The notes below the pieces were generated by a model. The model ran no database searches and was not told the DNA's origin. It worked only from the letters and a program-made list of their open reading frames with translations. Source: Lentisphaerales bacterium (lineage in GTDB: Bacteria > Verrucomicrobiota > Kiritimatiellia > SPBP01). Taken from it: a stretch of DNA of 54,837 nt. The stretch spans positions 1-54,837 of the forward strand of contig JAQBFM010000079.1 of NCBI GenBank assembly GCA_032123355.1, in the 5' to 3' direction. Shown here piece by piece: positions 5 through 45,923 of the stretch (positions within the stretch are counted from its first letter, which is position 1; each line of letters begins with the position of its first letter). Both the position numbers and the translations under genes were made by a program.

Positions 5-86
5 CTAGCAGCCTGTCGGACTTCCCGCCAGAGGCGGGTCTGCCTTTGGCCTGATCCGCTTCGCTCTAAGTCCGCCATGCTGCTAG
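5..86. repeat. CTAG-bounded palindromic mini-element, copy 1 (MITE/REP-like)
   Basis: Left arm ctagcagcctgtcggactt vs reverse complement of right arm ctagcagcatggcggactt (17/19). Internal mini-palindrome cccgcc-aga-ggcggg. Right CTAG contains the TAG stop of the TraB/GumN gene. Confidence 0.75.
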
Positions 87-985
87 AACTGGCGCACGGA
101 ATACTTGCCAGTGTCTTTCAACAGCTGAACAATGCCCTTCTTCCCAACCATGTGGCCTGCGCCGACTACGACGAAGTAGGTCCCGCCCTTCTTCAGAAAG
201 CCTTGAACCTTTTCGGCCATCTGGACATTACGCTTGAAATACAGCTCCTCGTATACCGGTGCGAGCTCAGGGTCATCGGCAAGGCTCTTCATCAGGACCT
301 TCTCCAGTGCTTCGGCATCTCCGGTCTTCCAGCAGGTCAGTATGCTACCGACATCACGTGCGCTGTTCTCCAGCTCGGATAAGGTCAGAAGCAGCAACTT
401 GTCTCCGTGTGGCCCCAGCACATTGTCCACGAGGTCGAGCTGCATTGCTGCCGACTCAAGCTCAAGAACGGTCTTGCTGCCGCGCGCCGCCGTGAGGAAA
501 TGCATGTCGATTCCGTTCATGGGCGAGAATCCCATGCTCATCAACTCAAGCGTTTCCACACTCATTGCGACGAACCATGGTTTGAACGCATTGAAGAAGA
601 GCGGACTGATGCCATACCTCGAGCATGCCGTATCGAGTTTCTCCATTGTTGTCACTGAGACCAGGTCCTCCAGCATAAGGCCATTTGTTATGCACGCTCT
701 GGCAAGGAACATCGCCTGCACCATCAGCTGGTTTTTGGTCGGATCAATTTCGACAACCAGGTTGGATGAGGACTTGAAGGAGTCTTCGATTCTCTCGTCG
801 AGTGGATAAAGGCTTTTCGGAGCCAGGTGCATTGAACCTAGCAGGAAGGCGGTGCCGTTTTCGGAACAGACCTCCCACATGAATACATTTGTCTCTTCGG
901 CCTGAGCCGGAATGGCCAGGAGGAACAAAGCGACAATCAGAGCCAGTACTCCTGCTGTAAGCAGCCTCCGTTTGTTCGTGGTCAT
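83..985 (-). CDS. TraB/GumN family secreted protein
   Basis: Signal peptide (..AIPAQA/EE); LLGSMH motif, GID..F, ELES, C-terminal FVVVGAGH motif typical of TraB/GumN/Tiki proteins. Confidence 0.9.
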   Translation of the reverse strand: MTTNKRRLLTAGVLALIVALFLLAIPAQAEETNVFMWEVCSENGTAFLLGSMHLAPKSLYPLDERIEDSFKSSSNLVVEIDPTKNQLMVQAMFLARACITNGLMLEDLVSVTTMEKLDTACSRYGISPLFFNAFKPWFVAMSVETLELMSMGFSPMNGIDMHFLTAARGSKTVLELESAAMQLDLVDNVLGPHGDKLLLLTLSELENSARDVGSILTCWKTGDAEALEKVLMKSLADDPELAPVYEELYFKRNVQMAEKVQGFLKKGGTYFVVVGAGHMVGKKGIVQLLKDTGKYSVRQF

Positions 986-1053
986 TGCCGAGTCGGTCCT
1001 TTCTTCATCCTGCTAACATGTCCTTCAGTGGCCCGCGCTGCTGGTGTTAATGC

Positions 1054-2097
1054 TTAACGTTCGAGTCTGGGCAGTAGGTGTTCGAAGTAGAGATCCAGCA
1101 TGTCCCCACTTATGTTGGGCGGCAGGTGGTTGCCGACGGCAAGAATGGCGCCCTTGCAGTCGGATAGCCGCTCGAATGTCCTGTCGATATCGGCGAGGAC
1201 CTGGTCGCGTCGCCCCAGTGTGATGTCGCGGCAATCGACGAAACTGCCGACGAGGCATTTCGTGCGGCCGAAATTGTCGGCCATGAACCCGAAATCATTA
1301 CAGGGCTCAAAGATGAAGCCGTCTGCGCCGGCTTCGGCCACGTCGACGGCGAACTCCATGAAGTTACCGTCGGAGCAGAAGAGAACTTTTTTGCCGGCTT
1401 CGTGAATCGGTTTCCACAACTCGGCGTATCTTGGAATGATGATCTTGCGGTAGACATCGGGGCTCATGAACGCACCGGAGGTCCAGACGAAATCATCATG
1501 CTGAATAACGACTTCAACGCTGGTCTTGGCCCAGGCCTTCATGAAGAACATTGTGCGTCTGAAGAAACTGTCCAACACGGGCTCCAGCCTCGCCGGCTCG
1601 GAGGCGGCGAGCAGCAACATGTCCCATCCGAATGAGCTGATCGCGCCGGAGACGAGGCTGGTGTAGCATCCGCCGGTGAGAAGCGTGTTGGGTCTGGCCG
1701 CCCGGGAATCCACGACTATCTTCTCATATGCAGCGACCTGTTCATCGAAATCGGGAAGACCGTACTCCTCGACTGCATTGAAGTCCCACACTTGCGCCTC
1801 GGAGGTGAAGGGAGATGGCTTCGCCTGCCGCTGGTCGCTTCCATCGGCGGCATACGAGGCGTGGCCCATGTCTGTGACACGGCCGGCCTCTGCCCAATTT
1901 ACCAGGCCGTCATTGGTCGACCACAGCATGTCGAAACAGAAGCGGTCAAAAGCGGCAACGTGCAGGTTCGGCGAGTCAGCCGGCAGACCGACACTACGCG
2001 CCAGATAGTCCGTGTGATAGTCGAGACTGTACTCCGTATGTCCCCATCGACTGGATGGTCTGAGGAATATGTTGTCGAGTGCTGTCTTTATACTCAT
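1054..2097 (-). CDS. Uroporphyrinogen decarboxylase (URO-D/MtaA-like) family protein
   Basis: FGWDMLL, QHDD, HxxGKKVLFCSDGN, GADGFIFEP, ILAVGNHLPP pattern of URO-D-like TIM barrels; substrate not assignable. Confidence 0.75.
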   Translation of the reverse strand: MSIKTALDNIFLRPSSRWGHTEYSLDYHTDYLARSVGLPADSPNLHVAAFDRFCFDMLWSTNDGLVNWAEAGRVTDMGHASYAADGSDQRQAKPSPFTSEAQVWDFNAVEEYGLPDFDEQVAAYEKIVVDSRAARPNTLLTGGCYTSLVSGAISSFGWDMLLLAASEPARLEPVLDSFFRRTMFFMKAWAKTSVEVVIQHDDFVWTSGAFMSPDVYRKIIIPRYAELWKPIHEAGKKVLFCSDGNFMEFAVDVAEAGADGFIFEPCNDFGFMADNFGRTKCLVGSFVDCRDITLGRRDQVLADIDRTFERLSDCKGAILAVGNHLPPNISGDMLDLYFEHLLPRLER

Positions 2098-2490
2098 GAA
2101 TCCTCCTGAGCTTCTGGTTCGAGCTGTGGATACCAGATATCATCGCGGAGCGCAAATCAAACATGGTGTTATGGTGTGGGGAGGGCGCATTCCACTTCTG
2201 TAGGGTTTTGTTGATCCTGTGATCCTGTGAGCGTAGAGAGGCCACGAAGACAGGAAGTCCATAGCAGATGCGCTACTACATGAGCAAGCAGCATCAACAA
2301 CGAAAACCGTGATGAAGAGGAACTTCGAACAATGGGTGAATGGAGAGAAGAGAAGATTAACCGCGAATAGCCCGTCTTCAACACCCATAGGCTCATCGCC
2401 ACTCATACGTCGTTCTGCCGTAATTCGTGCTGAGAGTTATCCCTACGGAAGTGACATGCGCCCGGACATCCAGACGTGATGCTTTTCTTC

Positions 2491-2523
2491 TTGCACACGT
2501 TTCATGGAGAGACTATATAAACT
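2491..2523 (+). promoter_or_regulatory. Candidate sigma70 promoter for the rib operon
   Basis: TTGCAC-17 bp-TATATA(AACT) just upstream of the FMN aptamer. Confidence 0.45.
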
Positions 2524-2535
2524 CGTACAACTTGA

Positions 2536-2699
2536 AATCTTCGGGACAGGGTGGGTCCGCAGTCAGTTGAGCGGACGATTCCCAACCGGCGGTAAAAGCC
2601 CGCGAGTCCAGGTTGCATTTGACCGGGACAGATACGGTGAAATTCCGTGGCCGACAGTAATGGAGTCTTGTTACTTCTGAGTCTGGATGGGAGAAGATT
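2536..2699 (+). ncRNA. FMN riboswitch (RFN element)
   Basis: aatcttcggg(a)cagggtg...attcccaaccggcggt...agcccgcgag...ggtgaaattcc...ccgacagt...agtctggatgggagaagatt; P1 aatcttc/gaagatt; directly upstream of riboflavin genes. Confidence 0.95.
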
Positions 2700-2718
2700 G
2701 TTCTGAGCATCTCTTTGT

Positions 2719-2748
2719 CCCGAAGGCATTGTGTCTTCGGGCTTTTTT
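2719..2748 (+). terminator. Intrinsic terminator, expression platform of the FMN riboswitch
   Basis: cccgaagg-cattgtg-tcttcggg hairpin followed by c-tttttt, between aptamer and ribBA start. Confidence 0.8.
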
Positions 2749-2774
2749 GTGCCCGCACGCAGGAAGGGAAGAGA

Positions 2775-4004
2775 ATGAAAAGTCCGGGCACGGATACTAA
2801 TGGATGCATATTTGATCCGGTCGAAGAGGCCGTTGCCGCCGTACGCAACGGCGAGCTTGTCGTGGTCACTGATGACGAGACGAGAGAGAACGAGGGTGAC
2901 CTCGTCGTGGCTGCCCAGAAGGTCAGCGATAAAGCCATAAACTTCATGACAATCAATGGGCGTGGGCTCATCTGTGTTGCACTTCCGTCCGACCGACTCC
3001 GTAAGCTCGGTATCGAGAAGCTGTCGCATCGGCGAGGCGGCGACCGGTTCGGCACCGCATTCACGGAATCTGTTGACGCGGCTAACGGAATAACAACGGG
3101 TATAAGCGCGCAGGATCGGGCCGAAACAATACGCGTGCTGATGGACGAGAATAGTAAGCCCCAGGACGTAGTAAGTCCGGGCCACATGTTTCCACTTGAG
3201 GCTAAGCCGGGCGGCGTCCTGCGGCGCGCCGGCCATACAGAAGCAGCGGTCGATCTTGCCGTCATGGCCGGACTGCGCCCCGCCGGGGTGATCTGCGAGA
3301 TTCTTCGGGAAGATGGTAAAATGGCGCGATTGCCGGAATTGCGTGAAATCAGTTCGCGACATGGCCTGAAGATGATCTCAATCGCCGACCTGATAGCTTA
3401 CCGAAGGAGCAGTGAGAAACTCGTCGAGAAAGTCAGGGCCATCTCATTGCCGACAGACTTGGGCCATTTCGACCTGCATCTCTACAGGTCCATAGTGGAT
3501 GGCGAACATCATCTTGCGCTGGTCATGGGTTCGCCCCAGACGGAAGATGCTCCACTTGTCAGGGTTCACAGCGAATGCCTTACCGGCGAAGTGCTTGGCT
3601 CCTTGCGCTGCGATTGCGGTCAGCAGCTGAAGGGCGCAATGCAGATGATATCCCAGGCCGGTGCCGGCGTCCTGGTCTACATGCGCCAGGAAGGAAGAGG
3701 CATCGGACTCGCGAATAAACTGCATGCATATGAGCTTCAGCAGACGGAAGGACTTGATACGGTTGACGCTAATACCAGGCTCGGCTTCCCAGCTGACCTG
3801 CGCGACTACGGGATTGGGGCCCAGATACTCCTTGATCTCGGACTCAAGCGCATTCGGCTCATGACCAATAATCCCAGGAAGATAGTCGGACTGCAGGGAT
3901 ACGGCCTGACCATAGTCGAACGAATTCCAATCGTTCACGAGTCAACTGAATACAGCGAAGCGTATCTCCATACCAAGAAGGTGAAGCTCGGTCATTTGTT
4001 GTAG
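2775..4004 (+). CDS. ribBA: Bifunctional 3,4-dihydroxy-2-butanone 4-phosphate synthase / GTP cyclohydrolase II
   Basis: DDETRENEGDL, GHMFPL, RAGHTEA, RVHSECLTGE, RCDCGQQL, QEGRGIG, TNNPRK. Start set at ATG 2775 after a purine-rich RBS; the ORF-track start lies inside the terminator. Confidence 0.97.
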   Translation: MKSPGTDTNGCIFDPVEEAVAAVRNGELVVVTDDETRENEGDLVVAAQKVSDKAINFMTINGRGLICVALPSDRLRKLGIEKLSHRRGGDRFGTAFTESVDAANGITTGISAQDRAETIRVLMDENSKPQDVVSPGHMFPLEAKPGGVLRRAGHTEAAVDLAVMAGLRPAGVICEILREDGKMARLPELREISSRHGLKMISIADLIAYRRSSEKLVEKVRAISLPTDLGHFDLHLYRSIVDGEHHLALVMGSPQTEDAPLVRVHSECLTGEVLGSLRCDCGQQLKGAMQMISQAGAGVLVYMRQEGRGIGLANKLHAYELQQTEGLDTVDANTRLGFPADLRDYGIGAQILLDLGLKRIRLMTNNPRKIVGLQGYGLTIVERIPIVHESTEYSEAYLHTKKVKLGHLL

Positions 4005-4048
4005 GAGCAGCGTGCAAAGATGAATATAACAAGAAAAGGAGGCAGCAG

Positions 4049-4531
4049 ATGAGCAGGGAAGAAATACAGGGACTATTGAAGGCTGACGGTATAAAGGCGT
4101 GCGTCGTGATAAGCCGGTTCAATGACTTCTTCACGAAACAGCTTCTTGACGGCGCAGTGGACTGTTTTGTGCGGCATGGCGGCAACGAAAACAGCCTGAC
4201 GGTAATATGGACACCCGGTGCTAACGAATTGCCGCTCGTGGCGGATCGTGCAGCCAAGTCAGGCAAGTTCAGCGGCCTTGTTGCTCTCGGTGCGGTTGTG
4301 CAGGGAGCCACCCGACACGCGGAACTGATCAATACACAGGTGTCGAGGTCTCTGGCAAAGACTGCCATGGACACCGAACTTCCACTGATCAATGGCGTCG
4401 TCTGCGCGGACAACCTCGAACAGGCGATAGAGCGATGCGGAACAAAATCAGGCAACAAGGGCTGGACTTCCATGCTGGCTCTTATTGAAATGGTCAATCT
4501 CTACAAGGAACTGGGACGGGGCGGGAAATAG
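4049..4531 (+). CDS. ribH: 6,7-dimethyl-8-ribityllumazine synthase
   Basis: SRFN, PGANELP, GAVVQGATRH, INGV, NKG motifs; SD aggagg. Confidence 0.97.
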   Translation: MSREEIQGLLKADGIKACVVISRFNDFFTKQLLDGAVDCFVRHGGNENSLTVIWTPGANELPLVADRAAKSGKFSGLVALGAVVQGATRHAELINTQVSRSLAKTAMDTELPLINGVVCADNLEQAIERCGTKSGNKGWTSMLALIEMVNLYKELGRGGK

Positions 4532-4533
4532 AA

Positions 4534-5034
4534 ATGGGCAAAAGGCGTGACGCCCGCGAACGGGCAATACAGTTGCTGTTTCAGCTCGATATGAACCCGC
4601 AGGACGTCGACTCGACGCTGCGCGGGTTCTGGCATGACAGCGGAGCCAGCAACGAGACGATTGAATTCGCCGAATCCCTTGTACGCGGCGTTATGCAGAA
4701 CCTTTCTGAAATCGACCTCATGATTCAGAAGAACACGACCAACTGGGATATCTCGAGGATCGGCAAGGTCGAGAAGTGCGTACTGCGTCTCGCTTTCTAT
4801 GAACTTCTCTATCGGACGGATATTCCGCCGGTGGTCTCAATTAATGAAGCAATTGAGATTGCGAAGCTATACGGGGGTGGAGAAGCATCCGGGAAGTTTA
4901 TCAACGGTATTCTGGACAACATAAGGAGGGATCTGCATCGGCCGGCTCGCACTGCCGGGAAGTCGCCGTCGGAGGCCAATGCGACTGATCCGGAGCCGGA
5001 GCAGACGGAAGATGACCAGCCGCAAGTCAACTGA
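4534..5034 (+). CDS. nusB: Transcription antitermination factor NusB
   Basis: RRDARERAIQLLFQ, LRLAFYEL, SINEAIEIAKLY, FINGILD; conserved ribH-nusB pair. Confidence 0.96.
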   Translation: MGKRRDARERAIQLLFQLDMNPQDVDSTLRGFWHDSGASNETIEFAESLVRGVMQNLSEIDLMIQKNTTNWDISRIGKVEKCVLRLAFYELLYRTDIPPVVSINEAIEIAKLYGGGEASGKFINGILDNIRRDLHRPARTAGKSPSEANATDPEPEQTEDDQPQVN

Positions 5035-6178
5035 TCATGACGAGTGCCTTATGCAGCGGGCAATCGAGCTCGGAGTGAAAGGCATGGGACGCACCTCGCC
5101 GAATCCGCCGGTCGGTGCCGTAGTGGTCAACCGTGGCAGCATCGTTGGCGAGGGATTCCACCGTAGAGCAGGGGGAGCTCACGCTGAAATAGAGGCACTC
5201 TCCGCAGCGGGCCGGAAGGCGGCAGGTGCAAGCTTGTATGTCACACTCGAGCCTTGTTCCACAAGTGGCCGGACCGGGCCGTGTACGGACGAAATTATCA
5301 GACGCAAGGTCAGACGGGTCATTATTTCGGCGACCGACCCAAACCCGTCTCACAACGGGCGCGGCATCAGAGTCCTGCGCCGGGCCGGTATAGGAGTAGT
5401 TACCGGGATATGCGCGGATCCGGGCCGCGAACTGATCGCGCCATTCCGCAAATGGATCACTCGCGGGCTCCCTTTCCTGACCCTGAAGATGGCGATGAGC
5501 CTCGATGGGCGAATCGCTGACTGCAAAGGACACTCAAAATGGATCACCGGCGAATCTTCACGATCACTTGTTAAACGCATGAGAGGCCGAGTCGATGCGG
5601 TAATGGTCGGAAGCCGAACTGCATGCAAGGACAATCCATCACTCACCGCGAGGCCATGTCCTTTCCGGATAATCCTCAATTCTGCGGGCAGTCTTCCGTT
5701 GACGGCAACCGTTCTGAATGACGACCATGTCGAGCGCACAGTCATTGCCGTTGCCCACAGCTGTTCACTCGACCGCGAAAGAAGCTATACCCGCAAAGGG
5801 GCCGCAGTATGGCGTATCGGAAATCGGGGAGGGCATCTATCGCTGAGGTCCCTTTTTCGCCGGATGGCTAAAGAGGAAATTCTACACGTCCTTTGCGAGG
5901 GGGGCTCGGAGCTTGCCGACTCACTACTCAGGGACGAACTCATTGATGAGCTGTTGTTCTTTATTGCGCCATCGATTCTCGGCGGGAAGAACGCTGTGCC
6001 GGTCATTGGCGGCACCTCGGACCGATCTCTTGACAAGCGTGAATCGCTGGTGTTTGCCGAACTCGGAATGTCCGGCCGTGATATCCTGGCTCGGTCATTG
6101 CCCGCAGGAGACCGCTGCAAAAATGGAGCTTCTGCGATTATGAGAGGACTGGTGCGTAGTGTTCACCGGATTGATTAG
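5012..6178 (+). CDS. ribD: Riboflavin biosynthesis deaminase/reductase RibD
   Basis: PNPPVGAV, HAE, LEPCS...PC zinc site, KMAMSLDG, VLCEGG; start uncertain (5012 or 5051). Confidence 0.95.
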   Translation: MTSRKSTDHDECLMQRAIELGVKGMGRTSPNPPVGAVVVNRGSIVGEGFHRRAGGAHAEIEALSAAGRKAAGASLYVTLEPCSTSGRTGPCTDEIIRRKVRRVIISATDPNPSHNGRGIRVLRRAGIGVVTGICADPGRELIAPFRKWITRGLPFLTLKMAMSLDGRIADCKGHSKWITGESSRSLVKRMRGRVDAVMVGSRTACKDNPSLTARPCPFRIILNSAGSLPLTATVLNDDHVERTVIAVAHSCSLDRERSYTRKGAAVWRIGNRGGHLSLRSLFRRMAKEEILHVLCEGGSELADSLLRDELIDELLFFIAPSILGGKNAVPVIGGTSDRSLDKRESLVFAELGMSGRDILARSLPAGDRCKNGASAIMRGLVRSVHRID

Positions 6179-7668: not shown

Positions 7669-7710
7669 CAAGTGGTAGTAACGCTGGCAATCAGTTCTTT
7701 TGTATCGATT

Positions 7711-8086
7711 GGTGGAGGCGTTCGGTCGCTCTTTCGCAACTGTGAAAGGGAGGAAAGTCCGGACTCCTCAGAGCAGGATGTCCTCGGGCTCGAAAGGGTA
7801 CCGGGGAGGCATTCCGTTAACCGGAATGGACGGACAGTGCCACAGAGAATATACCGCTCCGCATAATGCCTTGTGCACTATACGGAGTAAGGGTGAAAAG
7901 GTGGTGTAAGAGACCACCGGACCTTGCAGTAATGCGGGTTGCATGGCAAACCCCATCCGGAGCAAGATCAAATAGGGGACCCGAGGGGCTGCTCGCCCCG
8001 TTCCCGTGAAAGCGGGTAGGGTTCCGGGTAGATCGCATAAGATAAATGACCGACATCTGAACAGAATCCGGCTTATGTCCTCTGCC
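7711..8086 (+). ncRNA. rnpB: RNase P RNA (bacterial type A)
   Basis: gaggaaagtccggactc, agtgccacagagaa, gggtgaaaaggtggtgtaagagaccacc, ggcaaaccccatccggagcaag, aacagaatccggcttat; P1 ggtggagg/cctctgcc. Ends approximate. Confidence 0.96.
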
Positions 8087-9007
8087 TTTCGATACACTAA
8101 ATTAACCGGCAGGTCCGCCTGGGCCGTGCTGGCTGCTGCGTTGATTGCGTGTCTGCTATTCGCAGTAGCATATTTTCGGCTTCCGTCACTCTTGCCCGCA
8201 GGTCCAGGTGTTGAGGCAACGCCCTCCGACTGGGCTGCTGTTGTCCCGCTGCATCAATGCACGTGGTCGGTCTTCCAGACCACAGACGGCAAAACTGAGC
8301 CGGAAGCCGGTCCCTTATCGCAGCGCTTCAGGCTCGCCGGAACGCTCGTGTGGCTCGACCCTGACGGCACCGAGATCAAGAAAGCTATCCTCGCCGATCT
8401 CCAGGCCCGCACCGAAGAAATAGTCAGCGAGGGCACACTCGTCGGCAGCATAGAGGTCGTACGGATTCGACGTGAGAGCGTGTTGCTCAGAGATCGGGTA
8501 GGGGGGCAGGAAGAGGAACTTATTCTAACATACGCCCGCCCTACCCCTGAGCACGACCAGAACGATCCCCCTGCCGTGAGCGCCCCTGAGGGCCTTGAGC
8601 TCGGAGAAGGGGAACTCGTTATTTCAACCAACCGCTTTGGAGCCCAGGTCGGCGCAACCCGCTGGGTAATGTCCCGCGTCAGCGTCATGGGCTTTGTCGA
8701 CGAGATGTCCGAACATCCCGCTCGCGTCGCCAAGCTTTTCGATTCAATGAAGCCCGTCTATGAAGGCGACGGGCCTACGAGGCAGGTTTCCGGCTACGTG
8801 CTGCAACTCGAGGGCGAAGGTGACTTCTATCGCGATGTCGGCCTTAAGGAGGGCGATATTGTTCGCCGGGTGAACAATCTGCCCATGCAGAGCCAGCATC
8901 GCGCAATCTTCTGGATCGACCAGTTCCGGGCCAACAACGCTAATGCATTCCAGATCGACGTAGAGCGTGACGGGAAGGCCGTGCGCCTCGAATACCTCGT
9001 TCGCTAG
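8075..9007 (+). CDS. Type II secretion system protein C-like (N-terminal TM, HR domain, C-terminal PDZ-like)
   Basis: TM helix; FRLAGT..KAILAD...G..V.RIRRESVLL; GLKEGDIVRRVNN PDZ-like end; start uncertain (ATG 8075 or GTG 8126). Confidence 0.75.
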   Translation: MSSAFRYTKLTGRSAWAVLAAALIACLLFAVAYFRLPSLLPAGPGVEATPSDWAAVVPLHQCTWSVFQTTDGKTEPEAGPLSQRFRLAGTLVWLDPDGTEIKKAILADLQARTEEIVSEGTLVGSIEVVRIRRESVLLRDRVGGQEEELILTYARPTPEHDQNDPPAVSAPEGLELGEGELVISTNRFGAQVGATRWVMSRVSVMGFVDEMSEHPARVAKLFDSMKPVYEGDGPTRQVSGYVLQLEGEGDFYRDVGLKEGDIVRRVNNLPMQSQHRAIFWIDQFRANNANAFQIDVERDGKAVRLEYLVR

Positions 9008-35604: not shown

Positions 35605-35697
35605 CAGCCCGACAGGGCTCGCGATCTGCGTGCTTGTCATCTGCATATCCGTAGTTCAATCCAATGCGGCGTAATGTGTTCCTCGACAAAGACGTCA

Positions 35698-37479
35698 ATG
35701 AGTGACAAGTCCACATCTATCGAAAGTTCGCCTAAGTCGCCCAGACCGCCTGCTCCGAAACCATACCGCTTCGTATTCGGCCCCATGCGGAAGAGGCTTA
35801 TTCTTATCTTCGGCGGCGTGGTGGTTTTCTCCTTCCTCCTTGGGTACGGACCAGGCAGTTGTATTAGAATGAGCTCCGTAGCAACCGACGACTCCCCCAC
35901 CGTGGGCGGCATGGCTGTTAAACCTATCGAACTGCAGGAAGCGCGTCGGCTCGCAATTGTTCAATACTGCCTGTCTTTCGGCGACAAGCCCAGGAACAAC
36001 GAAGAGGATATGAACCTTATCGATCGAACCGCGTGGTCTCATGTCGCTGCCCGACGCCTTGCCGAGCGGCTCGGAATGATGACAGGCACAGATGAGCTCA
36101 GGGAGGAAATAGAACGAACCTTTTCAAAGGACGGAAAATACGACCCCGTCGAGTACGAGAGACAGAAAGGTCTTCTTGCCATGAATTTCGGCATCGGTCC
36201 GGCAGACTTTGAGTCATACATCAGGAGCAACCTCACTGTAAGAAAGCTGCTCGACGTCATGTCTGCCGCATGCTGGATTCCGCCGTTCGAAGTACATCGG
36301 TACATGTCCCGCTATACAGATTCCTTTGTTCTCGATTACGCGCACCTGCCTGTTCAAGTGGCCGACACCGATATTAAGATAACACTCGACGACATGCTCT
36401 CGTTCCACGAAGACAATCCCTCTATGTTCCAGGAGCCAGAGATGCGGCGCGTGAACTATGTTGCGTTCCCTCTCTCTGATTACATGGACGAGACATCCGT
36501 CACCGATAAGGAAGCAAGGGACCTGTATGACAGGAACTACGAGGACTACATATCCATCGATACCAATAACCTTGAGTCTATCATTCCATTTGAAGATGTG
36601 CGTGATGAGATCCGCGATGAGATCCGCACCGATATGGCCAGGGATATGGCCGAACGGAAAGCCATGGATTTAGTGCTCGCCATTCCAACGGACGCTGTAG
36701 AGACAACCAAGGCCTTCGACACCACATGCGCCGCATACCAGTTAGAGCCTTCTCTGTCGCCTTACTTCGCTCGATACGATGACGTGCTCGACATCGTGGA
36801 TGCGCATGACTTCGCTGAGGCGACTTTCGAACTCATCGAGGGCGACGCGCAACGTTCTTTCAGTGATCCCGTCACGTGCGGAGACAGGGTCTTCGTGCTG
36901 TCACTTGACTCAATTCTTCCCACGCGCACCGCGGCTTTTGAGTCAGTATCAAATCGAGTGCAAACACTTGTGCTGAGCAAGGCCCTTGCAGAACTGCGGG
37001 AATCAAGGTCGCAGGATATTGCTGATACCGTCAAGCTGGCGGTAAAGGCGGGGACCAATTTTGCGGATGCAGTCCTTCCCTTCGGAGCAGAGCCGTTTCG
37101 GACAGATCCTTTTTCTCTCTTTTCTCCCGACACCAACATGCCGCAAAGCCAGGCCTTTCTGACCGCAGTCGCCTCTCGTCACGCCGGAGAATTCGCGGAA
37201 CCCATCATCGAAACAAACGGCGTGCTTGTGGCCTTTGTGGCCGAGCGGAAACCGGGCGACCTTGGTCTGGACCCCCGGTATGTGGTCCACCTGCTAAAAC
37301 AGGAGCGGGGTAGCCTCGTGTATCAGGATTGGCTTGCCCAGGAGTTGAAAGAGGTTGATTTCGCAGGAGAAAATGCGTCTCGATCATCCGACGACGAGCC
37401 CGAACCGGATGCCACGGAATCTGAAGACGACTCCCTTCAATCTGATGATCAATCGCAGGTGCCAGTCGACACCGAGTAG
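35698..37479 (+). CDS. SurA N-terminal / PpiD-like periplasmic chaperone
   Basis: N-terminal TM; EL...I...F..DG.YD..Y; F...E.R.V.YV.F; PFS...P; acidic tail; start 35674 or 35698. Confidence 0.72.
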   Translation: MSDKSTSIESSPKSPRPPAPKPYRFVFGPMRKRLILIFGGVVVFSFLLGYGPGSCIRMSSVATDDSPTVGGMAVKPIELQEARRLAIVQYCLSFGDKPRNNEEDMNLIDRTAWSHVAARRLAERLGMMTGTDELREEIERTFSKDGKYDPVEYERQKGLLAMNFGIGPADFESYIRSNLTVRKLLDVMSAACWIPPFEVHRYMSRYTDSFVLDYAHLPVQVADTDIKITLDDMLSFHEDNPSMFQEPEMRRVNYVAFPLSDYMDETSVTDKEARDLYDRNYEDYISIDTNNLESIIPFEDVRDEIRDEIRTDMARDMAERKAMDLVLAIPTDAVETTKAFDTTCAAYQLEPSLSPYFARYDDVLDIVDAHDFAEATFELIEGDAQRSFSDPVTCGDRVFVLSLDSILPTRTAAFESVSNRVQTLVLSKALAELRESRSQDIADTVKLAVKAGTNFADAVLPFGAEPFRTDPFSLFSPDTNMPQSQAFLTAVASRHAGEFAEPIIETNGVLVAFVAERKPGDLGLDPRYVVHLLKQERGSLVYQDWLAQELKEVDFAGENASRSSDDEPEPDATESEDDSLQSDDQSQVPVDTE

Positions 37480-37499
37480 CGCCTCATCTGCCATCCCCA

Positions 37500-37557
37500 C
37501 TAGCAGGGCTAGGGCTTTGACCCGCCGCAGGCAGGGCTAAGTCCGACGCACTGCTAG
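37500..37557. repeat. CTAG-bounded palindromic mini-element, copy 2
   Basis: ctagcag...ctgctag ends; right arm aagtccgacgcactgctag resembles copy 1 arms; inner cccgccgcaggcaggg. Confidence 0.7.
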
Positions 37558-37584
37558 AGAAAACTAGCCAGCTTCGCTGAAAGT

Positions 37585-37605
37585 GTTCAGGGGTTCAGAG
37601 TTCAG
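37585..37605. repeat. 7-bp tandem repeat
   Basis: gttcagg gttcaga gttcagg. Confidence 0.7.
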
Positions 37606-37690
37606 GAGGCCACCGGCGCTCGGACTCCGGCAGGTGCTTCTCCAGTGATTTGTCAAGACCGTTGAGCATTCGGATGCAAAGAAACGTAGC

Positions 37691-38805: not shown

Positions 38806-38850
38806 TCGTCCTCGTCCTCAGTGAGCGTAGCAAACGGTCCTCGTCCTCGG
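38806..38850. repeat. GTCCTC-linker repeat element shared with the 51.4-51.8 kb mosaic
   Basis: tcgtcctcgtcctcagtgag...aacggtcctcgtcctcg; compare 51592-51631 gtcctcagtgag...aacggtcctcgt. Confidence 0.75.
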
Positions 38851-39056: not shown

Positions 39057-40238
39057 ATGAGAGTAATTCTACTTGTCCTCGACTCAGTGGGCATAGGGCA
39101 GGCACCCGATGCTGAAGACTATGGAGATGCAGGTGCCAATACCCTCGCGCATCTTGCCGAAGCCGACGGCGCGCTCGCCCTACCCTGCCTGCAACGCATG
39201 GGACTCGGGAACATACCGCCGCTTCTCCCCCATGGCTGCCCCATAGCGGGAGTTCCGCCCGTCGCAACACCGACTGCGCACTATGGAGCAATGCGAGAAG
39301 TCTCATCAGGCAAGGACACTACAACCGGGCACTGGGAAATGGCAGGACTGCGAATCGATAAAGGTTTCCACGTCTTTCCACCCGGCAAACCATCCTTCCC
39401 GGCCTCACTGACCGCGGAGTTCGAAAAGCTGACCGGCCGCAGCATCCAGGGCAACCGCGCCGCAAGCGGCACAAAGATTATCGACGAGCTGGGAGAACGC
39501 CAGATGGCGGAAGGTTTCTGGATCGTTTACACCAGCGCCGACTCGGTATTCCAGATCGCTGCGCACGAGGAAATCATTCCGCTGGAGGAGCTTTATGACG
39601 CATGCCTGACTGCACGGCGACTATGCGATCCGTTTCGGGTCGGACGGATCATCGCCCGTCCATACAGGGGTGTTCCCGGAAACTTCAAGCGCACCACGAA
39701 TCGACGTGACTTCTCCATGGTGCCGCCGGACCCCACCATAATGGACAGGTTGCTTCAATCCGGAATCAAGACGATCAGTGTCGGCAAGATTGACGACGTA
39801 TTTGCAGGCCGTGGCTTCGCACAGGTCTTTCACAACGAAGACACCGCTTCATCCCAGGTCTCGTTAACCTCGATCGTGGCCGATGAGCACAAGCACTGCT
39901 TCATATTCGCCAACTTCATAGACTTCGACATGCTGTACGGTCACCGGCGAGACCCCAGCGGCTATGCGCGTGCACTCGAGAAGACCGATGCCTATCTCTC
40001 CGGTCTGCTGCCGATGCTGAAACCCGACGACGTGCTGATTCTGACCGCCGATCACGGCAACGACCCCACTTTCTCCGGAACGGACCACACCCGTGAATTC
40101 GTTCCGCTCCTGGTTTATTCGACCCGTGGGCCGCACGTCAGGAACCTCGGAATCAGGGACGGATTCTACGACGTCGCGCAATCCGTGGCCGCATGCTTCG
40201 GGCTTGATCCCATCCCTAACGGCAAAAGCTTCCTGTGA
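39057..40238 (+). CDS. deoB: Phosphopentomutase
   Basis: LVLDSVGIG, GKDTTTGHWE, YTSADSVFQIAAHE, VGKIDD, DFDMLYGHRRD, TADHGNDPT, DHTRE. Confidence 0.97.
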   Translation: MRVILLVLDSVGIGQAPDAEDYGDAGANTLAHLAEADGALALPCLQRMGLGNIPPLLPHGCPIAGVPPVATPTAHYGAMREVSSGKDTTTGHWEMAGLRIDKGFHVFPPGKPSFPASLTAEFEKLTGRSIQGNRAASGTKIIDELGERQMAEGFWIVYTSADSVFQIAAHEEIIPLEELYDACLTARRLCDPFRVGRIIARPYRGVPGNFKRTTNRRDFSMVPPDPTIMDRLLQSGIKTISVGKIDDVFAGRGFAQVFHNEDTASSQVSLTSIVADEHKHCFIFANFIDFDMLYGHRRDPSGYARALEKTDAYLSGLLPMLKPDDVLILTADHGNDPTFSGTDHTREFVPLLVYSTRGPHVRNLGIRDGFYDVAQSVAACFGLDPIPNGKSFL

Positions 40239-40245
40239 GTTATGA

Positions 40246-41142
40246 TCACGCCGCAGATGTACCGGGCATTTTCAGATGTTCGGGTATTGCTGGCATTGCA
40301 CCTGGCTGAGTGCAGACGTAAGCCGCAAGCTCAGCCGCGTGCGCATGCAAGTCCTTCAGCGGACGGCCAGCCAGCAACCCCATCACCAGTGCCGCCGTGA
40401 AGGCATCACCCGCACCAACGGTGTCGACAACAGAGACCTTCGCCGGACCAAGTTCGCTTCGGTCGGATCCCGACATCACCACGCTTCCCTGGTCCCCCTT
40501 CGTCAGAGCAACGACCTTCAGTCCAAACTTCTCAATCAACCCGTGCATCACATACTCCTCAGCGCCATCCAGGGCAAGGAGCTCAGCGATAACGGGCAAT
40601 TCCTCCTCATTGCATTTCAGAACGTCACTCATGGCTACCGTCGTTGCTATTGTCTCCTGACTGAAATACGACTGACGCAGATTCACATCGAACACCTTCA
40701 GTGCATCACTGCCCGAACACTTGATTACTGCCCTGACAGCATCGCGAGAAACACTGTTTCGTTGGGACAGCGATCCGTAGCAGATTACGGAAGCACCGGC
40801 GGCAACATCCCTTAGACAATCAGTGGCGGCGATAAAATCCCACGCCACATTCTCGTGGATCACGTACCGTGGTTTGCCGGCAGAATCGAGTTCAACACTG
40901 ACAGTGCCCGTAGCGTGAAGAGGATCCACGTCGACACACGACACATCCAGCCCTGCCTCCGACAGCTCACGAAGAAGATCCTCGCCGTCCTCATCGTTAC
41001 CGACGCGACTCAAGACATAAGCTTCTGCGCCAAGTGCAAGGCAATGGTAGGCAAAATTGCATGGTGCACCACCCAGTTTACGGCCGGCAGGCAGAAGATC
41101 CCACAGCACCTCTCCAACACCAACTACAACGATCCGGTCCAT
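40246..41142 (-). CDS. PfkB family carbohydrate kinase (fructokinase-like)
   Basis: GEVLWD, GGAP.NFA, FDVNLRQ, DTVGAGDAF. Confidence 0.92.
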   Translation of the reverse strand: MDRIVVVGVGEVLWDLLPAGRKLGGAPCNFAYHCLALGAEAYVLSRVGNDEDGEDLLRELSEAGLDVSCVDVDPLHATGTVSVELDSAGKPRYVIHENVAWDFIAATDCLRDVAAGASVICYGSLSQRNSVSRDAVRAVIKCSGSDALKVFDVNLRQSYFSQETIATTVAMSDVLKCNEEELPVIAELLALDGAEEYVMHGLIEKFGLKVVALTKGDQGSVVMSGSDRSELGPAKVSVVDTVGAGDAFTAALVMGLLAGRPLKDLHAHAAELAAYVCTQPGAMPAIPEHLKMPGTSAA

Positions 41143-41174
41143 GCCTCCCCCGCATACTCCTGAAGCCGTGCCAC

Positions 41175-42212
41175 TCAGGCGTGAATCATGGCTTTCACAA
41201 CGCCATCACGATAGCCCGCAACGAGCTCGAATGCTTCAGGGGCCTCATCAAGTGCAAAGTGGTGCGTAATCATGAAATCAACATTGATCCCACCACAGTC
41301 GATCAAGTCCAGAGCTGTCTCGACACAGTCGCACTGCCTGCGAATGTTGATGATGCTGATTTCTCTCCTCCGGATCTTCTCTATCTCGAACTGGATAGAC
41401 GCTATCTCTGGGATGCCGGCAATGAGCAGCGTTCCACCCGGCTTCAGAAGTTCCACAGCCTGGTCTATCGCCTCCTGCTTCCCACAACATTCGAATACAG
41501 CGTCCAGCCCCAGGGGCTCACGCCCAAGAATCCCTGCCACCACATCCTCTTTATCAACATTGCCGGCCCAGCTTGCACCGCCGGCATTACGCGCAATGTC
41601 GACACGTTCATCGATCTTGTCCGTAACGTAGGTGGACCTCACCCCGTCTGCCCGCGCCGCCAGCAGCACCGACAACCCGATCGGGCCGGCACCCAGTATT
41701 CCTATCGCCGCATCCTGCGTTCGGCCAAAACGCCTGAACGTGTAAACTCCGATCGACAGGGGTTCAGCAATTGCTGCCCGATCGAGACCGATCGAGTTTC
41801 CAACCGGGAAACAGCTGCCCTCGGGCATAACGATGTACTCACATAGACATCCTTCCGATTCTCCGGGACATCCAAGAAACGTCAGGGCTCGGCATGTGTT
41901 GGATCTTCCGGCTTTGCACTGATCACATTCGCCACACGAGATTGCCGGATCAACCGCGATCCGGTCACCAGGCTTCAGGATGGTGACCGCTCCGCCAACC
42001 TTCTCGACCGTTCCGGAACATTCGTGACCTACCCGGAACGGGTATTCGACGCGCATCTTCCCGATATGGCCGGAAACATGATAGTGCACATCCGAACCGC
42101 ACACGCCCACCGACCCGACCCTGATGAGGACTTCTTTGTCATGCTTCAACTCGGGCGTTGGAACATCCCGTATTTCCATCTGCCTTAAACCCGTCAGCAC
42201 CGCAGCCTTCAC
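41175..42212 (-). CDS. Zinc-dependent alcohol/polyol dehydrogenase (sorbitol/threonine DH-like)
   Basis: CGSDVH, GHE, CGECDQC...C structural zinc, GAGPIG Rossmann motif. Confidence 0.92.
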   Translation of the reverse strand: MKAAVLTGLRQMEIRDVPTPELKHDKEVLIRVGSVGVCGSDVHYHVSGHIGKMRVEYPFRVGHECSGTVEKVGGAVTILKPGDRIAVDPAISCGECDQCKAGRSNTCRALTFLGCPGESEGCLCEYIVMPEGSCFPVGNSIGLDRAAIAEPLSIGVYTFRRFGRTQDAAIGILGAGPIGLSVLLAARADGVRSTYVTDKIDERVDIARNAGGASWAGNVDKEDVVAGILGREPLGLDAVFECCGKQEAIDQAVELLKPGGTLLIAGIPEIASIQFEIEKIRRREISIINIRRQCDCVETALDLIDCGGINVDFMITHHFALDEAPEAFELVAGYRDGVVKAMIHA

Positions 42213-42301
42213 CAGACACCACCCCTTTCATATCCCCGCTTGCCGCAGCTCAGCGCCGGCACGAACCACGACGAAACTGCCGCCACACCACCGACTTTCT
42301 T

Positions 42302-42418
42302 TCACCATGAAGAACATGAAGAGCATGAAGGGTCGAAGAACAGGGCTTGCGGTCCATCCTTGATCATCCCGCACTGAATCTCACCAGGAACAACCTCTCT
42401 TCATGACCTTCATGGTGA
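42302..42418. repeat. 22-bp inverted repeat built from 9-bp catgaag units
   Basis: tcaccatgaagaacatgaagag (42302-42323) vs reverse complement of 42397-42418 tcaccatgaaggtcatgaagag (20/22). Confidence 0.85.
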
Positions 42419-42453
42419 GATAATAGTGGCGAGAATACGCAGTGCGCACGCAA

Positions 42454-43467
42454 TCAGTTACTGCCGGTCCATGGCTGGAACCCGAGCTGACGCGCCACAT
42501 CCTCTTCCATGTATGTGCCGTGCCCCTTGCCGTAGAACTCAGAATCCTTTCGAAAATATATTCCGCTCCGCTGGTTGACCCACACATCACCTGGATCGCC
42601 AGCATGCGGAGACACCGCGGGTCCCGTCCGCCCGCCACCACCACCACCACCACCACCGCCCCCTTTCGAGCTGGTGGTCTCGGCCTGCTTCTTCTGCCAG
42701 ATCGTCCCCTGTGTCGATTCCAGCTCGTTCTCGGCCCCGTCCGGCAACTCACGCAGGAAATCCAGACCTGTAGCACCTTCAACCTTATCTATTGAGCACA
42801 CGTATCGTTCAATGCTTCCCGACGCGTTCATCGGAAGGAGGAATGCCACCGGCAGCATGATGTCAGCTTCCTTGCGCAGGACGATCTTAAAAAGACCTTC
42901 AGGAACGGCAATACGGCCGCGATCTGTTCGTTTCGGCGATTCACCGAGCACGGGCCCGGTCATTACCCATACCTCACCGTATTCCTTCGCCCAATCCCTC
43001 ACCCGCTCCTCTATATCGTGCCATACCTTGAGGAACCCCTCACCCGGCTCGATCGCGACCACGTTCGCAAGCGAATAGGACATCTTTTCCGTGCCCTCGC
43101 CTCTACCGAGGCTGTCCAGCGGCGAAAGCAGCTGAAGCGTTTCGTATCCCGACGCTTCTATGTCGCCATCTGTCGCTGAACGAAGGCCTTTTTCGACAAT
43201 GATCGGATCTACGAAATACTTGTGCTGCTTCACGAGTTGCCCGCCGGTGCAATACATGGGCGTCAAGTGATACGCCACGCAAACCGGCGTCCTCAACGTC
43301 GAGCTGTATCCGGAATAGTATGCATTGTGCGAAATCGGATACCCACCCCTCGGGCGTCCGAAAAGCACGTGCTCGCTTTCGTTGTCCTTGTCGCCCTCAA
43401 GCTCCTGTGCAAACACTGGAGCCACAAATGCCGCTACGAACAACAGCGCCGATAGAACCTTTTTCAT
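42454..43467 (-). CDS. Secreted DNA/RNA non-specific endonuclease-fold protein with degenerate active site, poly-Gly linker and small C-terminal domain
   Basis: Signal peptide; Y..GYS..LR.P..VAYHL, F..DP, W..IE..VRDWA..YGEVWV.TGP, P..LFKIV, AFLLP, SID.VE..TGLDF scaffold; SGY-ETLQ in place of SGY-DRGH. Confidence 0.82.
   Translation of the reverse strand: MKKVLSALLFVAAFVAPVFAQELEGDKDNESEHVLFGRPRGGYPISHNAYYSGYSSTLRTPVCVAYHLTPMYCTGGQLVKQHKYFVDPIIVEKGLRSATDGDIEASGYETLQLLSPLDSLGRGEGTEKMSYSLANVVAIEPGEGFLKVWHDIEERVRDWAKEYGEVWVMTGPVLGESPKRTDRGRIAVPEGLFKIVLRKEADIMLPVAFLLPMNASGSIERYVCSIDKVEGATGLDFLRELPDGAENELESTQGTIWQKKQAETTSSKGGGGGGGGGGGRTGPAVSPHAGDPGDVWVNQRSGIYFRKDSEFYGKGHGTYMEEDVARQLGFQPWTGSN
42631..42663 (-). 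repeat. Glycine codon run (11 Gly, 7 x GGT)
   Basis: ggg ggc (ggt)7 ggc ggg on the minus strand. Confidence 0.95.
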
Positions 43468-43512
43468 ATCTGTACTCCTCCTTCATACGTCCTGGTATCA
43501 ACATCCATTATC

Positions 43513-44571
43513 TCACCGCACCTGCCACAAATACATCAGTCTTGATTGCACCTGGTGCCCGTCTATTCTCAGATCAAGGCCAGGCCTGGCAAAACTCTTC
43601 AAAAGCGAAGAAAGCCCCAATTCATGGTCGTAACGCAACACCTTCACATTTTCGACGTCCAGCATTCCGCAAAGCCGCGCAACCGCATCGTCCCAGTACC
43701 CGATCTCATCAATGAGCCTGCAATCGAGAGCCTTTGAAGCCGACAGCACGCAACCATCCGCTATCTCCTTTACCTCTTCGACGGTTAACCCGGGCCGCCC
43801 ATTCACAATCAATTCAACAAATCGCTCATACATCTCGTCGACCATCTCCTGCAGCATCGCCCGCTGTGACTCCGTCAGGTCTTCGAAGGGACTCAGAAGG
43901 TTCTTGTTCTCACCCGACTTAACGGTCTCCATGCGTACGCCGTATTCGTCACCAAGCCCTTTTATGTTCAGCTTGCTTATCATCACGCCGATCGAGCCCG
44001 TCAACGTCGTGGGATGTGCAATGATGTAATCGGCAGCCACTGCAACATAGTATCCGCCCGAGGCTGCCAGGTCGCCCATGATTGCGATCACTTGCCTGCC
44101 GGCCTGTTCAGCCTTGAAATCCATGACAGCCCTGTGAAGAAGGTCCGAGGCAGTGATGCTGCCACCGGGACTATCTATCTCAAGAATCAGGCCCTTGATC
44201 TCAGGGTCCTTCGTTGCCGCTCGTATCTGCCGCAGCGCCTTCTCGACCGGCCCCTCCTCACTGAACCATCCTGCGTCTTCCTCTGAAGAAACCAGCACAC
44301 CCCGCACCGGAATGCGGACAACACTCACATCGCCACTTCCGTATGACCAGACGGCACGCAACGACGGCACGTCGTCAACCCCTGCATCCGTCCCGCCCTT
44401 CCGTGCGCCTATGATCGCAAAGACTGCAACAAACAGAAGCACCGTAGCGAACGCCGAGGCGATCGGCGATACCAGGCCCATTGTCAGTCCCCACAGGCAG
44501 CCAGTTCGGCCGCCCGGCTCCCGTGCCCTGCGCCTGGGGATTGGTGGTATAGATTCAGAACAATCATTCAT
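43513..44571 (-). CDS. sppA: Signal peptide peptidase SppA (S49)
   Basis: IDSPGGS, AASGGYY (catalytic Ser), TLTGSIGV, KSGENK; N-terminal TM. Confidence 0.92.
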   Translation of the reverse strand: MNDCSESIPPIPRRRAREPGGRTGCLWGLTMGLVSPIASAFATVLLFVAVFAIIGARKGGTDAGVDDVPSLRAVWSYGSGDVSVVRIPVRGVLVSSEEDAGWFSEEGPVEKALRQIRAATKDPEIKGLILEIDSPGGSITASDLLHRAVMDFKAEQAGRQVIAIMGDLAASGGYYVAVAADYIIAHPTTLTGSIGVMISKLNIKGLGDEYGVRMETVKSGENKNLLSPFEDLTESQRAMLQEMVDEMYERFVELIVNGRPGLTVEEVKEIADGCVLSASKALDCRLIDEIGYWDDAVARLCGMLDVENVKVLRYDHELGLSSLLKSFARPGLDLRIDGHQVQSRLMYLWQVR

Positions 44572-44622
44572 TATGCAACATCCTATCGCATGCACAGCCA
44601 AAGTTCAAGTGACGAACCGATC

Positions 44623-45768
44623 TCAACCCGCTTTTCCATCAGGCTCCGCCCCTGGCCGAATGGGCTTCCGCAGCTTTCCGTACAGCCCGAGCAGGAAATC
44701 GCGGTTGTCAGCCCTCGCATACCGCGTCGTTCCTCCCATTCGATTGAACGTCTTCAGGTATCTCCTGTAGTAGGACGGATCTGATGAAGCAGGTTCGGAT
44801 CCCGAGCTCCATCCTTTACCTGCCGGCGCAAGATCTATGACCGCAGTCCATAAATCGTTGATGTGTTCGCCCTTTGCGATGTGCAGATTCTGACACATCG
44901 ACAGCGCCTTTTCGAATATCATGGGTGACATCACCGCAGAACCGATCGATATGTATGCGCCGCCATCAAGTCGGTTCACACCCTCGGCGAACGCCAGAAA
45001 GTCCCGGAGTCCGGTCCTCCCGATGGCAGCCCCGCTATTCAACGGATGTGTATATATGATGTCGTGTCCTATCATCGGCAATCCGAAGAATGGTATCCCC
45101 AGTCGAAATGCCGCCGCCTGGACACTCAGGTGCTTGAACTTGTGCGGTATCTCGTGACGGCCCGGCCTGACATTCAGCCCCGTCATGATCGTGAGCAGAT
45201 CCGATGCGGCCGCGCTGCAGGCCGGGTCCGACTCCAGGTTGGCCGTTATTTCCTGTCTCAACGTCCCGGACTCGGGAAGGTTGAGACACTCCTGTTCAAT
45301 CATCGCACCAACCGACTCCCCGTAGCCCATGCCCAGGTACGCGCCAACGCCGATGGCCAGGTTGATGTAGCGACCGGTTTCCTCCCAGATTCCGAACCGG
45401 CCGGCATCGACATTTTCCTTTACGTCTTCCCCGGTCTCTCCCTGGTACGCCAGTTCCCAGTCATGAATGACCCCCGCCCCGTTCGTCGCCAGGTGCGTCA
45501 CCCATCCATCATCCATCAACTTGATAAGGAGCGGTCCCAGCCCGTTCTTGATCGTGTGCGCACCGAACGTCAGCATTACAGGCCTGCCATTCTTCTTCGC
45601 AGCAACCACGCGCTCAACCGTCTCGTCAACGAGCAAACGAGCCGCCCTCGAGAGACCGCGCGGCTTGGCATCGACTGGAACCATGTCCGTAGCGGCGAAC
45701 ACCCGGTTCCTTCGTTCCGACAGTGGCCTGATTCTCAAAGCCTTTCTATCGAGTTGTTTGTGTGGCAC
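44623..45768 (-). CDS. Deoxyhypusine synthase-like (DHS-like NAD-binding fold) protein of unknown function
   Basis: LTFGAH.IK.GL, HLATNGAG.IHD.E, IGHDI, IGSAV..P..FEKAL; GTG start after SD aggag. Confidence 0.65.
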   Translation of the reverse strand: MPHKQLDRKALRIRPLSERRNRVFAATDMVPVDAKPRGLSRAARLLVDETVERVVAAKKNGRPVMLTFGAHTIKNGLGPLLIKLMDDGWVTHLATNGAGVIHDWELAYQGETGEDVKENVDAGRFGIWEETGRYINLAIGVGAYLGMGYGESVGAMIEQECLNLPESGTLRQEITANLESDPACSAAASDLLTIMTGLNVRPGRHEIPHKFKHLSVQAAAFRLGIPFFGLPMIGHDIIYTHPLNSGAAIGRTGLRDFLAFAEGVNRLDGGAYISIGSAVMSPMIFEKALSMCQNLHIAKGEHINDLWTAVIDLAPAGKGWSSGSEPASSDPSYYRRYLKTFNRMGGTTRYARADNRDFLLGLYGKLRKPIRPGAEPDGKAG

Positions 45769-45864
45769 TTCGCAACTCCTCAACCCTTTAGCCAAACTCA
45801 ACATCGCGGACCCATCAATCCGCTTGCCAATCCGTGTACGTCAGGCTAACCTGAATCATCTGGA

Positions 45865-45923
45865 CTAGCAGACCTGGGCCTTTGTGACCTGCGCAGCATG
45901 GCGCAAAGGCCTGGGTCTGCTAG
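45865..45923. repeat. CTAG-bounded palindromic mini-element, copy 3
   Basis: ctagcagacctgggcctttg ... caaaggcctgggtctgctag, a 20-bp stem with two G-U pairs, 16 bp upstream of tRNA-Arg. Confidence 0.8.

Follow-up and report, generated by a model that had tools for sequence, protein, structure and literature searches.

The Correia elements (NEMIS) of Neisseria and the RUP elements of pneumococcus are small, intergenic miniature inverted-repeat transposable elements (MITEs) with terminal repeats; they are often co-transcribed and are mobilized in trans. Here we describe three short hairpins bounded by the tetranucleotide CTAG in a contig of a Lentisphaerales bacterium (JAQBFM010000079.1, assembly GCA_032123355.1). 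The window analyzed is this complete contig of 54,837 bp, and the hairpins are numbered copies 1 to 3 in order of position. Correia/NEMIS and RUP differ from these hairpins in having other parent insertion sequence (IS) families and other targets.

Described systems that share a transposase family with the present elements belong to the IS1182 family. ISPse1 has 4-bp repeats (PMC3281130), ISPsy36 targets GGCC (PMC8027508), and IS1272 and other members of the family target palindromes (PMC5678879). IS1272 and ISPsy36 appear to resemble the present elements in preferring palindromic targets and in their short palindromic duplications, but IS1272 replaces target hairpins without duplication, whereas one fixed tetranucleotide stands on both sides of the present elements. 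In Paracoccus yeei, MITEPye1 is an IS1182-derived MITE whose terminal repeats measure 18 bp and whose direct repeats measure 4 bp (PMC11578231). MITEPye1 and its presumed helper ISPye18 (PMC11578231) offer a close parallel: a noncoding, intergenic hairpin with IS1182-like repeats of ~18 bp and 4-bp direct repeats, for which mobilization in trans has been proposed. Compared by description, MITEPye1 is present in 1 to 3 copies and the present elements in tens of copies. The present elements further differ in their length of 54 to 82 bp, in a near-invariant 19-bp end found across at least six phyla, and in a flank that is always CTAG.

The preliminary description of this contig proposed that the hairpins form a nonautonomous MITE family, with CAG..CTG ends and duplication of a CTAG target. 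Our analysis supports that proposal through the dispersal of the elements, their sharp CTAG boundaries, and the IS1182 ends that they carry. On this evidence the elements are very probably MITEs, that is, internally deleted derivatives, devoid of a transposase, of a CTAG-targeting subgroup of the IS1182 family, whose transposases are of the DDE type. Copy 3 is a less certain member and is treated separately below.

Terminal repeats and an autonomous partner

Each of the three hairpins starts with CTAGCAG and ends with CTGCTAG, exactly at the positions first reported for them (Table 1). They are small (58 to 82 bp) and have no coding capacity. Both arms of copy 1 and the right arm of copy 2 carry a 19-bp terminal inverted repeat, CTAG/CAGCCTGTCGGACTT. 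The left repeat of copy 1 (positions 5 to 23, CTAGCAGCCTGTCGGACTT) agrees with the family consensus at 19 of 19 positions and the right repeat (68 to 86) at 17 of 19, and the right repeat of copy 2 (37539 to 37557) is canonical (reverse complement CTAGCAGTGCGTCGGACTT). The part common to the left arm of copy 2 and the canonical repeat is CTAGCAG only. Scoring an end profile, a position weight matrix derived from 134 distinct arms, at 109,674 window positions gave ranks 1 and 2 to the two arms of copy 1 and rank 3 to the right arm of copy 2.

These ranks bear out the reported cross-match between the right arm of copy 2 and the arms of copy 1. The other reported cross-match, between the left arm of copy 2 and the arms of copy 3, amounts to 9 of 13 positions beyond the heptamer (empirical p of ~8e-4, or ~4e-3 with shifts), a likeness in sequence that is suggestive only. 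Compared with shuffled sequences, copy 1 (z = -4.9) and copy 3 (z = -6.7) fold strongly and copy 2 weakly (z = -1.6). The 25-bp arms of copy 3 pair perfectly or nearly so, and their sequence is not that of the canonical repeat. Copies 1 and 2 had also been described as holding a nested cccgcc..ggcggg palindrome. In copy 1 this is present as cccgcc-aga-ggcggg; in copy 2 it is imperfect in the window and perfect in a contig of another strain (L001).

A BLAST search of a plasmid collection with one element led to Pseudomonas megaplasmids, where the 19-bp match adjoins annotated IS1182-family transposase genes. The IS in question is 1,571 bp long (range, 1,571 to 1,576 bp) and has 19/19 inverted repeats at both ends, identical in sequence (CTAGCAGCCTGTCGGACTT) to the left end of copy 1. 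Five copies in four unrelated contexts all read flank-CTAG/CAG...CTG/CTAG-flank, so that CTAG stands on both flanks in every context, as it does around the window's elements. A copy from Pseudomonas putida is only 72.5% identical in its interior, and its ends are still 19/19. The 457-amino-acid (aa) product matches NF033551, the NCBIfam model of the IS1182 family, with a score of 383.5 bits (cutoff, 270), as well as the Pfam models DDE_Tnp_1, DDE_Tnp_1_6, and DUF772. We write the end pattern of these IS1182-type elements as CTAG/CAG..GTCGGACTT. In contrast to the hairpins, the plasmid IS is autonomous, encodes its own 457-aa DDE transposase, and resides in another phylum. It may correspond to a named IS1182-family element of Pseudomonas aeruginosa such as ISPa7. 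No empty site for it turned up in the plasmid collection.

The preliminary description had listed the lack of a cognate transposase among the conditions under which the hairpins would be independent; such a transposase does exist, in an IS with identical 19-bp ends. The same description had pointed to CTAG as the preferred target of some IS701/IS5-type elements. The NF033551 match places the parent in the IS1182 family, a relative of IS5, rather than in IS701 or IS5 proper.

Further, a tblastn search of the fetched loci with the IS protein detected transposase remnants beside or between the repeats in genomes of the Planctomycetes-Verrucomicrobia-Chlamydiae (PVC) group (Table 1). Judged from their sequence, these remnants are the deletion intermediates expected between an IS and a MITE. 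At one of these loci, in a Chthoniobacter metagenome-assembled genome (MAG; L089, 100 to 220), the 5' terminal repeat of the IS is predicted to pair with the region of the transposase start codon (CATGGCTGCTAG; -43.8 kcal/mol). In this folding model, the pairing could plausibly act as a shield against read-in translation, and it is possibly also a route to mini-elements with a single canonical end, such as copy 2.

The flanks themselves fit more than one kind of transposition. IS630 elements prefer CTAG and duplicate TA, so MITEs of an IS630/Tc1-mariner-type element, arranged as C-TA-(GCAG..CTGC)-TA-G, would show the ends that we observe, and CTAG on both flanks is compatible with a 4-bp duplication of CTAG and with a 2-bp duplication of TA alike. 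An IS630 origin is nevertheless highly improbable, given that every autonomous element found to carry exactly these 19-bp ends has an IS1182-family transposase gene, that the remnants in deletion derivatives are IS1182-like, and that no IS630-type gene was seen beside any end.

The elements are also short, palindromic, and intergenic, as would be repetitive extragenic palindromic (REP) sequences or REPINs mobilized by a REP-associated tyrosine transposase (RAYT; HUH Y1 type), or a REP class maintained by the host. The preliminary description had named an unnamed REP class as its alternative. REPs are lineage-specific, whereas the same ends occur here in at least six phyla; these ends equal those of a DDE IS, and a palindromic tetranucleotide is duplicated on the flanks. 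No association with RAYT turned up, though no search aimed at RAYT was made. The cross-phylum ends and the DDE IS partner lead us not to favor a REP class, which we consider very unlikely, and descent from an IS1182-family element remains the preferred reading.

Table 1. Positions of the CTAG-bounded hairpins, their neighboring genes, and related insertion sequence material
Feature	Sequence	Position	Strand	Description
Copy 1	window	5-86	.	82 bp, probable MITE
Copy 2	window	37500-37557	.	58 bp, probable MITE; lineage-specific subfamily
Copy 3	window	45865-45923	.	59-bp CTAGCAG..CTGCTAG hairpin, noncanonical arms
TraB/PrgY/GumN-family gene	window	83-985	minus	Pfam PF01963, E = 2.4e-57
SurA-like chaperone gene	window	35674-37479	plus	stop 20 nt upstream of copy 2
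tRNA-Arg(UCU)	window	45940-46016	plus	downstream neighbor of copy 3, gap 16 nt
Example IS copy	NZ_CP096823.1	50338-51908		transposase WP_003458619.1
Transposase remnant	L100 (Verrucomicrobiia)			C-terminal piece
Transposase remnant	L013 (Verrucomicrobiia)			N-terminal piece
Transposase remnant	L020			decayed copy
Transposase remnant	L089 (Chthoniobacter MAG)			N terminus, copy cut by contig end

Abundance, host range, and target

CTAG is depleted 8-fold in the window, with 25 occurrences compared to ~208 expected from base composition (ratio, 0.12). Six of the eight CTAGCAG/CTGCTAG heptamers form the three facing pairs of copies 1 to 3, and where CTAG is so strongly avoided this excludes chance pairing. 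About a quarter of the CTAGs in the window are ends of the three elements. Contigs of a sister species (L122 to L128) are nearly free of CTAG (1 in ~13 kb), and several others of its contigs have none.

We gauged copy number from the depth of Logan contigs of two independent sediment/aquatic metagenomes (X1 and X2) aligned to the elements. These depths sum all organisms of a sample and are rough, yet they indicate tens of copies. Copy-2-like sequence reaches a depth of ~270 to 600 against a flank depth of 20 in X1 and 180 to 290 against 9.6 in X2 (~13- to 30-fold), and copy-1-like sequence reaches 390 to 2,050 against 23.5 in X1 and 219 to 908 against 12 in X2 (~17- to 90-fold). Other elements of the copy 2 type span 37499 or 37500 to 37557 with 7 to 8 differences in 59 bp and have unrelated flanks from the CTAGs onward. 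Similarly, homology of the copy 1 type stops at the CTAGs, where loose ends begin. The possibility, raised at the outset, that the genome holds only these three copies is thus contradicted for the types of copies 1 and 2, which stand at ~13 to 90 times flank depth in both metagenomes.

More high-copy repeats lie at 37564 to 37678, next to copy 2, and at 38806 to 38849 and 42634 to 42660, and assemblies break at all three. Contigs over 37566 to 37634 and 37608 to 37678 have ~6 to 10 times flank depth and contain near-repeats of the TTCAGG type.

A scan with the pattern CTAGCAG-N30-60-GTCCGNCNNNCTGCTAG, taking one genome per species, returned at least 109 loci, against a few tens expected by chance on a rough estimate. 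At least 116 short elements of 54 to 80 bp were recovered, with near-invariant ends (CTAGCAGCCTGTCGGACTT ... AAGTCCGACAGGCTGCTAG) and variable loops. Positions 8 to 10 covary between the arms (CCT/AGG, CTT/AAG, CGT/ACG, and TCT/AGA). Hosts, by record titles, include Gamma-, Beta-, and Alphaproteobacteria, Verrucomicrobia, Planctomycetota, Lentisphaerales, Victivallales, Terriglobia, and Desulfuromonadales, so that the 19-bp repeat bounds hairpins in at least six phyla. All three copies, 251 family arms from other genomes, and the five IS copies are flanked by CTAG on both sides. End variants CTAG-GAG and CTAG-GAA are also present, and variants that lack CTAG represent either degraded ends or segments of larger composite repeats. 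Clustering of the open reading frames across the at least 109 loci yielded generic families only (ABC transporters and histidine kinases) and no transposase cluster, and a literature search for the 19-bp end sequence returned only unrelated PCR primers.

Several other repeats share part of this architecture. A 60-bp CTAG-bounded perfect palindrome in a Moanabacter MAG (L043, 1277 to 1336) has unrelated arms (CTAGCCCGAATG...), which means that CTAG-bounded hairpins have more than one arm family. Seven "Candidatus Moanabacter" loci (L016, L040, L061, L062, L067, L086, and L110) carry a 93-bp subfamily, GAATCTGTCGGA...TCCGACAGATTC, with CTAG at a single end; its other end bears a conserved extension of the CTTCCAAGAAAA type, and the subfamily thus belongs to a larger composite repeat. 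Elements of ~240 bp with the same ends and a 61-bp hairpin as their right part occur at L012, L039, L059, L060, L080, L081, L102, and L104, in two MAGs and a Lentisphaerales MAG.

In two MAGs (ELA067 and ELA687), elements abut one another and have one CTAG in common, as reuse of the regenerated site would predict. The only orthologous overlap between the ELA067 and ELA687 loci (82% identity) consists of abutting arrays and contains no empty site. In the other genomes, the terminal TAG ends an open frame 200 codons or longer in 44% of elements, compared to 23% of random positions. This ~2-fold enrichment in stop codons is real but modest, and it most simply reflects where CTAG is tolerated.

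The hairpins are stable, and two of the three closely follow the ends of genes, which would suit independent intrinsic terminators or processing hairpins whose ends are similar by chance. Such hairpins are scarcely credible as an explanation, since no U-tract follows any copy, there are dozens of related copies, the 19-bp ends are conserved across phyla, and copy 3 lies upstream of its gene rather than downstream. For copies 1 and 2, the copy number and the IS match refute it. The related suggestion that the elements were recruited as terminators finds no sequence support: a sequence scan detected no U-tract after any copy and no promoter-like or terminator-like site that coincides with the copies. 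Host function is not needed to explain the elements.

Insertion sites and the case of copy 3

Comparison with relatives suggests that the elements were gained as insertions, most precisely so for copy 3. In the sister species, a syntenic contig carries an ortholog of the gene next to copy 3 (82% identity), with conservation of the tRNA and of the sequence on both flanks. A single tetranucleotide stands there in place of CTAG-55 bp-CTAG, leaving a clean gap of 55 bp.

At the copy 1 locus, the TAG stop of the TraB-family gene (83 to 85, minus strand) is part of the right-hand CTAG, which agrees with the earlier statement that this element supplies the stop codon. The distances of copies 2 and 3 from the SurA-like stop and the tRNA-Arg gene were likewise as reported (Table 1). 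In a relative (L129), the TraB gene is two codons longer and ends in TAA, the element is absent, and the downstream histidinol dehydrogenase gene is conserved. The preliminary description had also listed a lack of empty sites among the conditions under which the hairpins would be independent. Copy 3 provides a clean gap, and copies 1 and 2 are absent from relatives at sites that cannot be cleanly aligned.

Copy 1 lies 4 nt from the contig edge, and the sequence that follows it differs in three assemblies (window, 1 to 86; L116, 10900 to 10981; L117, 2229 to 2310; L121, 2346 to 2427). The order TraB-histidinol dehydrogenase is common to the window, L117, and a relative and is therefore taken as ancestral. 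In L116, the element separates convergent TraB and OPT genes and provides the TAG stop of each; its second half is another variant, with matched CAT/ATG triplets. The differing contexts reflect either recombining copies or misjoins by the assembler.

Several observations weigh against an IS1182-derived, mobile origin for the elements of this window. A tblastn search found no IS1182 transposase within the window. Where the window has copy 3, the empty site of the sister species reads CCAA and not CTAG. The SurA-like locus of the sister species is without the CTAG element, and its divergence is too high for an empty site to be read at base level; the copy 1 locus of the relative is also too diverged for a clean empty site. 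Among eight metagenomes of the species we saw no insertion polymorphism, and all of them carry copies 2 and 3. Beyond the heptamer, the left arm of copy 2 and both arms of copy 3 score at background in the end profile. In the metagenome contigs, copy 3 is at flank depth with no second copy at 80% likeness or above, and two metagenome scans for arms of the copy 3 type (CAGACCYRGGCCTTTG) and the copy 2 left type gave 0 matches each.

Much of this concerns copy 3, which we regard as somewhat more likely than otherwise to belong to the same superfamily as copies 1 and 2, on the basis of its 7-nt termini, its weak likeness to the left arm of copy 2, and its insertion. Taken by itself, it might instead be an independent or selected RNA hairpin in the leader of tRNA-Arg, or an unrelated CTAG-targeting relic whose ends coincide with those of the family. 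Its arms are unlike the canonical repeat beyond 7 nt, it is single copy, scans for its arm type are without matches, and other CTAG-bounded palindromes with different arms exist, such as the one in the Moanabacter MAG. In strain X5, copy 3 is a perfect palindrome; the window differs from it by CA>TG at 45875-6, changes after which G-U pairs persist on the tRNA strand alone (-48.9 compared to -40.6 kcal/mol). Chance would preserve the wobble pairs at both transitions with a probability of ~0.25. A metatranscriptome contig (45832 to 46002; depth, 3.4) spans the copy 3 hairpin into the tRNA, and a second RNA contig begins exactly at the mature 5' end of tRNA-Arg (45940). These contigs agree with a hairpin that is carried in the leader of the pre-tRNA, but the RNA evidence is thin, consisting of single contigs at ~3-fold depth that carry no strand information.

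Against such a separate origin stand the precise 55-bp insertion relative to the sister species with a tetranucleotide repeated on both sides, the exact CTAGCAG/CTGCTAG termini, which are very unlikely by chance in a genome with so few CTAGs (25 by the window count), the length of 59 bp, which is typical of the family, and the 9-of-13 match to the left arm of copy 2 (p of ~8e-4). We consider a separate origin possible for copy 3 but the less likely account. Copy 3 is almost certainly some kind of mobile insertion, and membership in the superfamily of copies 1 and 2 is the reading we prefer. It probably now lies in the 5' leader of pre-tRNA-Arg, where any role would be putative.

Three RNA contigs (45940 to 46231) start within 10 nt of the mature 5' end of tRNA-Arg and run 90 to 215 nt past its 3' end. 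Two readings fit the RNA past the 3' end: a trailer left unprocessed, or the antisense 3' end of the gene on the minus strand at 46032 to 46838. A scan of the window with Rfam 15 gave no family match at the gathering score on any of the three copies. Elsewhere in the window, the scan identified an RNase P RNA of class A (7710 to 8091; 219 bits) and an FMN riboswitch (2533 to 2702; 86 bits), with the tRNA as the third match.

Mechanism and implications

By analogy with the family, an IS1182 transposase acting in trans would bind the ~15-bp subterminal repeat CAGCCTGTCGGACTT, excise or copy the element, and insert it into the palindrome CTAG. CTAG would then be present on both sides as a 4-bp duplication, and a duplication of TA would yield the same sequence. 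CTAG holds TAG on both strands and is otherwise avoided, so insertions would fall on or near stop codons, regenerate those stops, and be harmless. Transposition in trans and the length of the duplication are both inferred, and current mobility in this host is putative.

A bolder reading is that one CTAG-targeting subgroup of IS1182 with a near-invariant 19-bp end, together with its ultrashort hairpin MITEs, forms a cross-phylum system that preferentially colonizes TAG stops, including the CTAG shared by overlapping convergent genes, and regenerates both stop and target. In genomes as poor in CTAG as this one, such a system would supply a large share of all CTAG sites and seed its own arrays, and copies like copy 3 would be kept as RNA hairpins (for copy 3, in the leader of pre-tRNA-Arg) under strand-specific selection. 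We put this forward as speculation that is rather doubtful as a whole.

An IS1182-derived MITE with 4-bp repeats, MITEPye1, has already been described, and the present elements add a tidy natural history rather than new biology. Their interest is modest and lies in a near-invariant 19-bp end over at least six phyla and in a target, palindromic and containing a stop, that makes insertions harmless. Repeats of this kind break or misjoin metagenome assemblies, as the three downstream contexts of the copy 1 locus illustrate. For uncultured bacteria of the PVC group and others, recurring CTAG-bounded hairpins are explained as ordinary mobile DNA, and reading them in this way guards against their annotation as terminators, REPs, or new RNA genes.

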